DNA of 64,000 nucleotides, taken from Candidatus Helarchaeota ASGARD archaeon Hel_GB_B (GTDB taxonomy: Archaea > Asgardarchaeota > Lokiarchaeia > Helarchaeales > HEL-GB-B). Below are positions 34,200-58,016 of the stretch, piece after piece. A program made the translations under genes and the position numbers. Below the pieces are notes generated by a model, which searched no databases, was not told the DNA's origin, and saw only the letters and a program-made list of their open reading frames with translations. Position 1 is the stretch's first letter. Every line of letters starts with the position of its first letter. The stretch lies in NCBI GenBank assembly GCA_005191425.1, contig SUPR01000002.1:2453-66452 (forward strand), read 5' to 3'.

Positions 34200-34330
34200 T
34201 GGACCGGCCGGGAATTTCGTCTAAGTCCACAAAGAAATCCAAACGAATTTCATTTTTTTAGAGGACTAAATTTCGAACCCGGGGCCTCCAGATTGCAAGT
34301 CTGACGATCTACCAACTGATCTACCGGCCC
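34200..34330 (-). tRNA. tRNA-Ala (anticodon UGC) interrupted by a ~58-nt intron inside the T-loop (between positions 59/60)
   Basis: Minus strand reads GGGCCGG-TA-GATC-AGTTGGTA-GATC-G-TCAGA-CTTGCAA-TCTGG-AGGCC-CCGGG-TTCGAA[58 nt]T-CCCGG-CCGGTCC-A. The G3:U70 pair is the alanine identity element. The intron contains a 5-bp internal helix (AGTCC/GGACT). Confidence 0.75.
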
Positions 34331-54256: not shown

Positions 54257-56002
54257 TTATAAAATTGAGCCACATTCCGGACAAATTCGTGCAAATAAGG
54301 TTATAGGCGCCTTACAATGTGGACAAACTTTTAAAGGCTTTTTACATTCAGGACAAATTTTCTCCATCATAAAAACCACACTTTTACAATGTGGACAAAT
54401 AGCCTTAGCACCAATTATAGTTGGTTTAGTTGGCTTTTCTTCCAATTCAGTTTTTTCAATTTCTTTAATTTTTAAATAATCATCTAGGCTAGATTCTTCA
54501 ATTGTTTTTTGCTCGTCAATAGATTTTAACTCTTCTTGCTCTTTTTGCGAATCTGTTGACACAGCTTGTTGTTTTTCTTCAGTTTTAGCTAGAACATCTG
54601 TTAATTTTGATAGTGTTTCATCTAATGGCTTTATTGTTTCATTTACTTGTTCTTGTACTTCTGCTTTTGGAATTTCTTTTTCTTCAGTAATTGGCATGGC
54701 TATTGGCATTTCTGGCGATTTTGTAACAATTGGCTCGGCTTTTTCTTGTGTTTCAATACCCATTAAATCACTTGCTTTTGCAGCTTCAAATTTCTCCGGC
54801 TGCTCTACTACTTCTGATTGTTCAATCGGTTCAGTCTCATTCATAATATTCATTAAATCATTAAATAATTCTTCATTTACTTCTTCAGCTACCATCACTT
54901 CAACATCTGATCCACTCGCTGGTTTCATCGGTATATCCAAGACTTCTTGCTTAGAAATTTCTTCGGGGATAGGGGCTGCTTTTGGTGCGCTTGGAATTTC
55001 TTCGGGGATAGGGGCTGCTTTTGGTGCGCTTGGAATTTCTTCAAGAATTGATGTAATATTTGATTTATGTGATTGTTCTGTTTCTGGTGTAATTGATGTG
55101 GTAGGTTGCACTAAAGGTGGGGGATTAGACAAAGGAACTTGATTTGTAGCAGATGGCGGAATAAAAGGCGAAATTGGATCTGTATTTTTTAATAAATTGT
55201 TTATATCATCATATATTTCATCCATTGTAGGCTGTTTTATAGTTATTGGTGGTACAACAGGGCTTGGGGCTTCAGGTGTCTTTGGTATCTCTTTTTCTGA
55301 AACTTTTAATTCAGCATGAGTAATTTTAGGAGCTTCTTTTTTAACAACCTCCTCTTTTTTTGGTTCTTTTTTAGCTTGTTCTCCCTCCATTACAATAATT
55401 CTTTTTAATTTTATCCAACCTTTTTTCTGATATTTTTTAATTATTTCATCGACTTTTAATCTTGGAAGATTTGTTTTTTCACAAATATCTTCTATTGTAT
55501 TTTTACCATCAATTAAATGAATTACTTTTGCTTCAATCATAGAAAATTTCTTTCTTTCAATTCCATCCAATTTAATAGGTACTCTATATGCTGTCTTCTC
55601 AACTTGTTTAGATTTTCCTTTTTCTAATTTCATATCAATAAATTTGTCAATATAATCTGAATATTTGTGCATGCGGCCTTTAAATGCCAGTAATTGACCT
55701 ACTGGGCCACTTTCTGAATAAAGGACTATCATAGCTTTTTCTGAAAGTTTAAAAAATCCGATATTTACACCTGAAAGAGGTAAGCTATGTTCTCCAACAT
55801 CTAGGACGCTAAAATTTCCTGCGGCAAATGATTTTATAAAATCAGCATATTTTTCTTCAAGAACTGGATCAATATACTTCAAATTATTATTATTATCAAT
55901 AATCCCGATTTGTATTGGGTTTGATAATAATTTTCTCATATCATTTGCGATTTTTTTTACAATATCTTCGAGTGAATTAATATTTTCGATTTCCTCGCTC
56001 AT
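54257..56002 (-). CDS. Multidomain protein: N-terminal Roadblock/LC7-like domain, winged-helix segment, long Pro/Glu-rich low-complexity linker with tandem repeats, C-terminal double Zn-ribbon
   Basis: N-terminal IQIGIIDNNNNLKYID...NIGFFKLSEKAMIVLYSESGPVGQLL fits the Roadblock/LC7 alternating pattern. The C-terminus has CPHCKS...CPECKKPLKVCPHCKAP...CPECGS. Confidence 0.45.
   Translation of the reverse strand: MSEEIENINSLEDIVKKIANDMRKLLSNPIQIGIIDNNNNLKYIDPVLEEKYADFIKSFAAGNFSVLDVGEHSLPLSGVNIGFFKLSEKAMIVLYSESGPVGQLLAFKGRMHKYSDYIDKFIDMKLEKGKSKQVEKTAYRVPIKLDGIERKKFSMIEAKVIHLIDGKNTIEDICEKTNLPRLKVDEIIKKYQKKGWIKLKRIIVMEGEQAKKEPKKEEVVKKEAPKITHAELKVSEKEIPKTPEAPSPVVPPITIKQPTMDEIYDDINNLLKNTDPISPFIPPSATNQVPLSNPPPLVQPTTSITPETEQSHKSNITSILEEIPSAPKAAPIPEEIPSAPKAAPIPEEISKQEVLDIPMKPASGSDVEVMVAEEVNEELFNDLMNIMNETEPIEQSEVVEQPEKFEAAKASDLMGIETQEKAEPIVTKSPEMPIAMPITEEKEIPKAEVQEQVNETIKPLDETLSKLTDVLAKTEEKQQAVSTDSQKEQEELKSIDEQKTIEESSLDDYLKIKEIEKTELEEKPTKPTIIGAKAICPHCKSVVFMMEKICPECKKPLKVCPHCKAPITLFARICPECGSIL
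54953..55043 (-). repeat. 39-bp tandem repeat (about 2.3 copies) inside the CDS, encoding EEIPSAPKAAPIP units
   Basis: Direct repeat CTTCGGGGATAGGGGCTGCTTTTGGTGCGCTTGGAATTT visible on the plus strand. Confidence 0.6.
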
Positions 56003-56783: not shown

Positions 56784-56885
56784 GGGCCGGTGATCTAGAA
56801 GCAATATATCGGCAATATTATTGGAAATCGGTATGATATCGCCCTCACGCGGCGAAAATCGTGGGTTCAATTCCCACCCGGCCCA
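56784..56885 (+). tRNA. tRNA-Val (anticodon CAC) interrupted by a ~29-nt intron in the D-loop
   Basis: GGGCCGG-TG-ATCT-AG[~29 nt]TC-GGTA-TGAT-A-TCGCC-CTCACGC-GGCGA-AAATC-GTGGG-TTCAATT-CCCAC-CCGGCCC-A. All stems pair. 102 nt total against a 73-nt mature length. Confidence 0.75.
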
Positions 56886-56909
56886 TAATACTCCAAGAGG
56901 TGAATAACA

Positions 56910-57104
56910 ATTCCAGTAGAAATAAAAGATGAAAATAAATTATTAAAAATTGCAAAAGATTCGACAGAATGCAAAGTTATTAGAGTTGGCGATAAGGTAA
57001 AAATAAAAGTTAGAGGTACAAAATATTTATATACTTATATTACGAATCCTAAATCTTCTGAAGAACTTTTAAAAAAGATCCCTTGTAAAATTATCGAATT
57101 ATAA
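56910..57104 (+). CDS. rpl38e: Ribosomal protein L38e; not in the ORF track because it has no ATG, and the probable start is AUU
   Basis: Translation (I/M)PVEIKDENKLLKIAKDSTECKVIRVGDKVKIKVRGTKYLYTYITNPKSSEELLKKIPCKIIEL matches L38e (MPKQIEEIKDF...VKFKVRCSRYLYTL...). AGGTGA Shine-Dalgarno at 56898-56903 lies 6 nt before ATT. An in-frame TGA sits directly upstream. Confidence 0.65.
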   Translation: MPVEIKDENKLLKIAKDSTECKVIRVGDKVKIKVRGTKYLYTYITNPKSSEELLKKIPCKIIEL

Positions 57105-58016
57105 TAACCAAAATATTAGAAATACTATACCAAAAAAGCCTATGCCAATCCCAATTGAAAGTGGTAGTCCTGGTAATATCTCTCTTTTTTCTAATAATTT
57201 GAATGTAATGATTGCTCCTATTAAAATTCCTATTACGCTTGCAATACATGGTAAAAAAATTGCTATAATTCCATATTGACTAATAAAGGGTGTTTCAAAC
57301 CCAATTTTTAGTGCAGAACAAGTTAACATAGAATAAAAAGTTAAATCACCAAGTCCTATTTCATAATCTTGCATAGAATAACTCATTTCAAATGCAAAAC
57401 TATTCTTTTTTTCATTAAGCTCAATAATTTTCTTGATAGGACCTTTAAAAACAGCAATAATATCGTAAATTGCAAGTCCTATTAATAGTAAAAAACTGGT
57501 CCAGTTTGGTAAAATGAGGCCTAAAAAAGAACCTATTAACCCCCCATAAATTAATAGACTTGCATTTTTAATTTTAACATTTTTAGAAAATTTATCATGA
57601 AAAATCGCTAAAGTCAAGGCAACTCCTGATAAAAAACTTACAATAATGACTATAAAAAATGATAATAAATCTGAAATTGAAAAGATATACAATATACTTA
57701 ATCCAAAAAGAAATAATATCAGTCCACTAATGAAAACAAAACTTATGAAGAAAAAATGTTTTAAAAATTTCTCCTTTTTATATTTCAAAAGTAAATAAAT
57801 TATAAACCCACCAAAACTAGCAATTATTATCAAAATCATTGCATTAATCACCCCTATTAAAGGGTTCAAGTTTCCTTGGTTCTCAGGGATGAACGCTGCA
57901 TTAAAATCGAAAAAACCTGAAATTAAGCCAACAATAGAAAAACCAATTGCTATAAACATTGTTATAATTAACGGAACTAACCTTTTTCGAGTTTTTACTA
58001 CGATTTCAGAAATCAA
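57099..58016 (-). CDS. Presenilin/signal-peptide-peptidase-like intramembrane aspartyl protease (A22 family homolog)
   Basis: Polytopic membrane protein with YD (LAIYDIIAVF) and GxGD (EIGLGDLTFYS) motifs, plus a PAL-like PGLP motif near the C-terminus. Confidence 0.5.
   Translation of the reverse strand: MISEIVVKTRKRLVPLIITMFIAIGFSIVGLISGFFDFNAAFIPENQGNLNPLIGVINAMILIIIASFGGFIIYLLLKYKKEKFLKHFFFISFVFISGLILFLFGLSILYIFSISDLLSFFIVIIVSFLSGVALTLAIFHDKFSKNVKIKNASLLIYGGLIGSFLGLILPNWTSFLLLIGLAIYDIIAVFKGPIKKIIELNEKKNSFAFEMSYSMQDYEIGLGDLTFYSMLTCSALKIGFETPFISQYGIIAIFLPCIASVIGILIGAIITFKLLEKREILPGLPLSIGIGIGFFGIVFLIFWLL

Follow-up and report, generated by a model that had tools for sequence, protein, structure and literature searches.

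A probable AUU start codon in the ribosomal protein eL38 gene of a Helarchaeales archaeon, conserved behind a tRNA-Val gene

The stretch of DNA analyzed here (hereafter, the window; 64,000 nucleotides of contig SUPR01000002.1 from the Candidatus Helarchaeota archaeon Hel_GB_B) carries an intact reading frame for ribosomal protein eL38 that lacks a canonical start codon, and sequence comparison points to the ATT codon at position 56910 as the best reading of its start, which we consider probable. Archaeal start codons are usually described as AUG, GUG, or UUG. Related lineages conserve the arrangement, which, judged from these sequences, most likely reflects a genuine non-standard start, rare in nature, and no error. 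The features of the locus are listed below.

56784–56885, forward strand: tRNA-Val(CAC) gene with a D-loop insertion (putative intron) of approximately 27–30 nt; Rfam match, exons conserved in six lineages
56886–56909, forward strand: leader from the tRNA 3' end to ATT; 24 nt, too short for a promoter of its own and predicted to be unstructured
56897–56903, forward strand: Shine–Dalgarno (SD) motif GAGGTGA; seven contiguous matches to GGAGGTGA, the longest SD match of the window
56904–56906, forward strand: ATA, alternative near-cognate start, chosen by NCBI PGAP for this species; 1 nt past GGTG
56910–56912, forward strand: ATT, most likely initiation codon; aligned with eL38 Met1, 7 nt past GGTG and 6 nt past AGGTGA
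56910–57104, forward strand: predicted eL38 (Ribosomal_L38e) coding sequence; 64 codons plus TAA, supported by Pfam, phmmer, AlphaFold2, Foldseek, and dN/dS
57099–58016, reverse strand: convergent presenilin-family gene with a TTG start; 6-nt overlap with the eL38 stop, conserved context

The intact frame spans 56904–57104 on the forward strand and is closed upstream by the in-frame TGA at 56901–56903, which doubles as the last three bases of the SD motif. Read in frame, the region consists of TAA (56886–56888), TAC TCC AAG AGG, the TGA, ATA (56904), ACA (56907), ATT (56910), and CCA (56913), after which the frame continues with GTA GAA and ends with TTA, TAA (57102–57104), and a second TAA (57105–57107). 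The first-pass annotation of this DNA had described a TGA-bounded frame free of ATG, GTG, and TTG and had proposed an AUU start 6 nt past AGGTGA. The first description was confirmed and the second supported: none of the 66 sense codons downstream of the TGA is ATG, GTG, or TTG, and ATT lies exactly 6 nt (ATAACA) past the AGGTGA at 56898–56903 (GAGGTGA from 56897), with the alignment to Met1, the length of the product, and the recurrence of GAGGTG-N6/7-ATT-CC in three other lineages supporting its use as the start. Written as RNA, the putative initiation region is GAGGUGAAUAACA-AUU, and a start at ATT gives a 64-aa product beginning with MPVEIKDENKLL. The probability that a 66-codon frame contains no internal ATG, GTG, or TTG was approximately 0.08 under the codon usage of the long ORFs of the window, and the internal lack of these codons is therefore unremarkable; the notable feature is a conserved gene whose N-terminus has no canonical codon. 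All other plausible coding frames of the 64-kb window had a canonical start, and lineage-wide relaxation of start-codon usage was rejected on this basis, one window being a small sample. The minimum free energy of the region 56888–56960 was −0.9 kcal/mol, with shuffled sequences being more stable. A scan of the window with a sigma-70 promoter model and for terminators returned nothing usable, the model not being applicable to archaea.

The position of ATT relative to the SD motif was compared with that of other SD-led genes in the window, defined as those with at least five contiguous matches to GGAGGTGA (n = 6, a small number). In these genes, the start codon followed the end of GGTG by 5–11 nt, a range that includes ATT at 56910 (7 nt), in line with the ideal spacing previously claimed for it, whereas ATA at 56904 lies at 1 nt. 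The natural strong initiation site of Pyrococcus abyssi aEF1A, GGAGGUGAUUUAA-AUG, has a spacing of 6 nt (PMC6237735), which matches the 6–7 nt observed among the eL38 genes of the clade.

On the evidence of sequence matches and a predicted structure, the product of 56910–57104 belongs to the eL38 family. The HMM search that had been proposed as a check on the L38e assignment matched Pfam PF01781 (Ribosomal_L38e) with 34.9 bits against a gathering threshold of 27 (E = 1.5e-8; profile positions 1–59 of 68), and a phmmer search of the PDB matched eL38 chains, with Pro4 of the frame placed opposite eL38 Pro2. The AlphaFold2 model, built with 33 sequences, had a pLDDT of 89.8 and a pTM of 0.72; all 47 Foldseek matches in the PDB at E ≤ 1e-3 were eL38 chains (TM 0.71–0.89), including Pyrobaculum calidifontis L38E (9e6q_Ae; TM 0.87) and eukaryotic eL38 (TM 0.87–0.89). 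The window protein consists of a single small domain with the CRV...KLKLR...YLYT core. Its 64-column alignment with 32 archaeal homologues was free of gaps, with P2, C21, K31, K33, L40, and Y41 invariant and Met1 as the only conserved position that is replaced in the window (by Ile, encoded by ATT).

An exhaustive HMMER search together with two profile searches yielded 4527 archaeal eL38 proteins at E ≤ 1e-5, originating from Promethearchaeota/Lokiarchaeota, Helarchaeota, Baldr-, Hod-, and Hermodarchaeota, and Thermoprotei. These proteins typically comprise 64 aa, the modal length, and begin with MP.E(I/V), in which Met1 is nearly invariant; ATT at 56910 stands opposite this Met1, and initiation there gives the modal length. 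The suggestion that L38e is patchily distributed in archaea, so that its presence would be phylogenetically informative, fared poorly, given the 4527 homologues and the occurrence of eL38 in most Asgard groups and Thermoprotei (PMC9932298, Table 1). Since eL38 is common in Asgard and TACK archaea, its presence argues only against a euryarchaeal origin. The top match of the exhaustive protein search (P0004; 3353 aa, E = 1.6e-20) was given with no matched stretch and is probably a compositional artefact of the Lys-rich, low-complexity query.

Two neighboring genes showed features of their own. The presenilin-family gene is conserved context and no part of the start mechanism; a Leu codon was read as its start in all five orthologues compared (window [TTG], L004, L009, L010, and L012), so that this gene also has a conserved non-ATG start. 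At 54257–56002 on the reverse strand, the window encodes a protein of 581 aa that carries a double zinc ribbon at its C-terminus (Pfam DZR in relatives) and has an extended low-complexity middle region rich in Pro, Glu, and Lys, which contains near-repeats, with EEIPSAPKAAPIP occurring twice. The orthologue in L001 comprises 637 aa, and the length of this protein thus varies within the species.

In protein searches, the close matches formed a single cluster, from NCBI metagenome-assembled genomes named Candidatus Helarchaeota archaeon. From the tRNA gene through the start region, the window was identical to six further assemblies of its species (five NCBI metagenome-assembled genomes and one JGI metagenome); three sites varied in the 324 nt that were compared. 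The agreement among these seven same-species sequences excluded errors of sequencing, which had been named as a possible source of the missing ATG, and of assembly. Annotations of the gene were inconsistent. The first-pass statement that gene callers miss it entirely applies only to callers limited to ATG, GTG, and TTG; NCBI PGAP does annotate the gene, as a "hypothetical protein", in L001–L003, L016, L017, and L010. On identical DNA, PGAP chose the ATA corresponding to 56904 in four assemblies (MTIPVEIK, as in P0001 and P0003) and the ATA corresponding to 56922 in L016 (MKDENELLK), and in L010 it chose ATT (MPQEIK, 64 aa), so that one public annotation already uses ATT, without comment. Thus, PGAP starts the eL38 orthologues at three different non-canonical codons, and other callers extend the genes of L004 and L008 to a GTG inside the SD motif. 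The database lengths of 60–67 aa for eL38 in this clade are annotation artefacts. A 47-aa call (P0166), considered as a further lineage with a non-canonical start, was rejected because its true start is TTG directly after the upstream stop; in this sequence (L018), the TTG follows the TAA of the upstream gene, and the caller had shortened the gene to 47 aa. The L018 sequence, ENA contig NODE_3687 (ERZ1669417; sites 1–33 and 200–391), opens with the Nextera adapter TCGTCGGCAGCGTCAGATGTGTATAAGAGACAG, indicating that the assembly carries adapter contamination.

To compare the start region across relatives, we used a clade sample of six lineages, namely the window and L004, L005, L008, L009, and L010; genome and metagenome scans based on the clade alignment contributed no lineages besides L005, L006, and L007. 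Relative to the window, the five further lineages showed identities of 63–73% in eL38 and 64–70% in the presenilin-family protein, with a star-like tree. Their start regions are given below as SD motif, spacer, and Met-aligned codon with the codon after it.

Window: GAGGTG, AATAACA, ATT CCA
L004: GAGGTG, CCTACA, ATT CCA
L008: GAGGTG, TATAAA, ATT CCG
L010: GAGGTG, AAGAGAG, ATT CCC
L005: GGAGGTG, TATGACA, ATA CCA
L009: GAGGTG, ATTAAT, ATG CCC

GAGGTG and AT-CC were invariant in all six lineages, with GAGGTG located 6–7 nt upstream of the Met-aligned codon in each, whereas the leader, the spacer, and the flanks had diverged. The comparison with orthologues called for by the first-pass annotation thus placed ATT at the Met position in four of six lineages (window, L004, L008, and L010), with ATA in L005 and ATG in L009. 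The geometry of L009 is the same as that of the ATT lineages and serves an ordinary ATG (GAGGTG-N6-ATG-CC). Because the spacer is either 6 or 7 nt and keeps no frame, a coding role for it in every lineage is impossible. The L010 frame reads TGA AGA GAG ATT, and ATT is the only near-cognate codon past the in-frame stop. For L004 and L008, the called GTG starts were rejected, since this GTG lies inside the SD motif and a 6-nt spacer is required to bring it into frame; we regard it as the GTG of the SD motif itself. The exception is L005, nearest to the window in the eL38 tree, which has ATG two codons upstream of its Met-aligned ATA, at the position of the window ATA 56904 and 1 nt past the SD motif. 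A canonical in-frame codon is present upstream in three of the five non-ATG lineages, and the use of AUU is therefore not forced there. L010 also carries a leader element, ATG AGG TGA (1487–1495), a two-codon start–stop that overlaps the SD motif in frame upstream of ATT; it is absent from the other lineages and may be coincidental.

The outgroups L011, L012, L013, and L007 have eL38 genes without tRNA linkage and without an SD motif, starting with ATG or GTG, and one of them (L012) shares the flanking genes with the window. The view that the window copy is a simple mutant of an ATG-bearing close relative was supported only in part: L005 and L009 have ATG, and L004, L008, and L010 share ATT. 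In the presenilin tree, the ATG lineage L009 was placed among ATT lineages, suggesting that ATT arose more than once or that ATG was regained. Star-like topologies in both trees, that of eL38 (63 aa) and that of presenilin, gave no polarity for ATG and ATT.

Upstream of eL38 in all six lineages, at a distance of 22–41 nt (24 nt in the window), lies a tRNA-Val(CAC) gene with a putative intron in the D-loop, a non-canonical position for an intron. It has the acceptor stem GGGCCGG/CCGGCCC, discriminator A56885, the anticodon loop CUCACGC, and a normal T arm. The Rfam tRNA model matched with 28.7 bits over 56823–56879 only (E-value mode; below the Rfam gathering score), and ARAGORN did not detect the tRNA at 56784–56885. 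Across the six lineages, the exons are conserved and the AT-rich insert varies in length and sequence, each insert having its own hairpin. D-stem pair 10–25 covaries, being A-U in five lineages and G-C in L008, and a helix between the end of exon 1 and the 3' end of the insert (UCUAG/YUGGA) recurs across lineages. The six-lineage comparison established no strict 3-4-3 bulge–helix–bulge motif or exact splice sites for this insert. A second split-looking tRNA is located at approximately 34200–34330 on the reverse strand, with GGGCCGG, the anticodon loop CUUGCAA (GCA, Cys), and an apparent T-loop intron (CCGGG TTCGAAA, an insert of approximately 58 nt, CCCGG CCGGTCC A); Rfam matched only 34274–34330 (31.7 bits), and ARAGORN reported none. 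That split tRNAs are missed by standard finders explains why almost no tRNAs were reported in the 64-kb window.

The eL38 genes of the clade all comprise 64 codons without gaps. Synonymous divergence between lineages was saturated (dS > 1), and dN/dS ranged from 0.06 to 0.19 overall and from 0.08 to 0.19 among the ATT-bearing lineages (dS > 1), indicating that the gene is under purifying selection. That this selection has acted while the gene carried ATT disfavors its reading as a pseudogene.

The main rival to AUU is initiation at the AUA codon at 56904, directly after the in-frame TGA, which would give the 66-aa product MTIPVEIK... annotated by PGAP; we consider this unlikely. The PGAP calls P0001 and P0003 begin there, and the residues TIP are common to the window, L005, and L004. 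The ATG of L005 at the equivalent position, accompanied by ATA at the Met-aligned position, suggests that initiation 1 nt past the SD motif may work and that ATA at 56904 is thus a possible start. This distance nevertheless contrasts with the 5–11 nt of the other SD-led genes in the window, and the codon is not conserved, being CCT in L004, TAT in L008, AGA in L010, and TTA/AAT in L009, in a stretch that also contains a 1-nt indel. The annotation offered in its favor is itself inconsistent, given the different ATA selected in L016 on identical DNA, and the product would exceed the 64-aa norm by 2 aa.

Two further explanations dispense with a working near-cognate start. The gene might be silent or decaying, a start-codon mutation having inactivated a dispensable eL38. 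Yeast without eL38 grows like the wild type and several archaeal phyla are without the protein (PMC9932298, Table 1), and the three variable sites within the species are too few to measure selection. Against this stand the frame, intact in seven same-species sequences, the perfectly preserved SD motif, the confident and complete predicted fold, and the ATT shared by lineages at saturated synonymous divergence with dN/dS of 0.08–0.19, which together make loss of function improbable. Least probable, to a degree that we regard as negligible, are explanations by an artefact (an error in sequencing or assembly) or by an unusual way of reaching a canonical start (TGA reassignment, frameshifting from the GTG at 56900, or an AUG provided by splicing). 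No support for any of these was found; the GTG at 56900–56902 exists but is out of frame, and its frame stops after 10 codons. Read-through of the TGA would reach the TAA at 56886 with no ATG on the way, and there is agreement among the seven sequences of the species and four additional lineages, which come from different samples. Moreover, the ordinary ATG of L009 within the same architecture renders special processing unnecessary. We therefore retain AUU at 56910 as the start.

Based on these observations, we propose that a functional eL38 gene is probably translated from AUU at 56910. The gene would be transcribed from the tRNA promoter as a tRNA–mRNA co-transcript, as suggested by the conserved linkage and by a spacer with no room for an archaeal promoter; alternatively, the AT-rich tRNA insert might contain a promoter that gives rise to the transcript. 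A tRNA co-transcribed within an mRNA 5' untranslated region has been reported in the archaeon Thermococcus kodakarensis (PMC4247193). RNase Z cleavage after A56885 would then release an mRNA with a short, unstructured leader, on which pairing between the SD and anti-SD sequences could set AUU in the P site. The initiator Met-tRNA would pair with two of the three positions of AUU, the third being mismatched, so that the protein would start with Met (MPVEIK...). In vitro, aIF1 of Sulfolobus discriminates against AUU on SD-led mRNA and destabilizes the complexes formed on this codon (PMC4705826, PMC6237735), and output per mRNA should therefore be reduced in a stringency-dependent manner. Accordingly, AUU initiation at eL38 is expected to be less efficient than AUG initiation and sensitive to aIF1 proofreading, with the strong SD motif and open leader partly compensating.

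How the canonical codon was lost may be related to the change from a separate, SD-less unit to an SD-led unit behind a tRNA, which may have allowed loss of the ATG. The contrast between outgroup genes that are separate, canonical, and SD-less and clade genes that are tRNA-linked, SD-led, and equipped with ATT is consistent with a lesser need for AUG when initiation is SD-led. We further consider, as a rather doubtful proposal, that AUU is selected and not merely tolerated, tying eL38 synthesis to aIF1 stringency or throttling excess mRNA from a strong tRNA promoter. If true, this AUU would provide archaea with an equivalent of infC-type control and would be the first substrate of aIF1 proofreading in vivo that is known from nature; such control may have originated, or persisted, independently in several lineages of the Helarchaeales. 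Equally, AUU could reflect a slightly deleterious change that is tolerated, in a protein whose loss leaves yeast growth unimpaired (PMC9932298).

A long-kept AUU on an SD-led gene shared with eukaryotes offers a natural sequence for tests of near-cognate initiation and aIF1 stringency. Because callers limited to ATG, GTG, and TTG drop or mis-extend the gene, eL38 may appear absent or mis-sized in inventories; this concerns marker-gene and ribosomal-protein lists, eL38 being a universal Asgard ribosomal protein. The probable AUU start adds a case to a phenomenon that is already known, and the protein itself is an ordinary eL38. A literature search returned no archaeal gene with a conserved AUU start, a result that, given its incomplete coverage, constitutes absence of evidence only.

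Compared with known systems, the window gene resembles archaeal and eukaryotic eL38 (PF01781) in sequence, in its 64-aa length, in the K-Y-L-Y-T core, and in its predicted fold, and differs in having ATT at the nearly invariant Met1 and in its location behind a tRNA and an SD motif; the nearest outgroup eL38 genes, in contrast, form separate units without an SD motif. In T. kodakarensis, the tRNA-Lys in the 5' untranslated region of TK0306 likewise places a protein gene directly 3' of a tRNA without room for a promoter (PMC4247193). Unlike in that case, co-transcription in the window is deduced from the 22–41-nt spacer and the linkage, and the tRNA has a putative D-loop intron. The lack of room for a promoter behind the tRNA would imply that the mRNA is released by tRNA 3' processing. 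Another tRNA–mRNA co-transcript is that of the tRNA-tufB operon of Escherichia coli. The poor-context AUG of eukaryotic eIF1, together with eukaryotic near-cognate starts, provides a parallel in that use of a weak site is set by stringency of the eIF1/aIF1 type (PMC4705826); however, eukaryotic sites are reached by scanning and are not placed by an SD motif, and the regulation is demonstrated there and speculative here. In the codon itself, the window gene resembles bacterial infC (IF3), which likewise belongs to the translation apparatus and has an SD motif and an AUU start conserved in evolution; the start is policed in vitro by a fidelity factor, IF3 there versus aIF1 in archaea (PMC4705826). 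The two differ in the domain of life and in the factor concerned, and the autoregulatory loop of infC has no obvious counterpart here because eL38 is not a fidelity factor.
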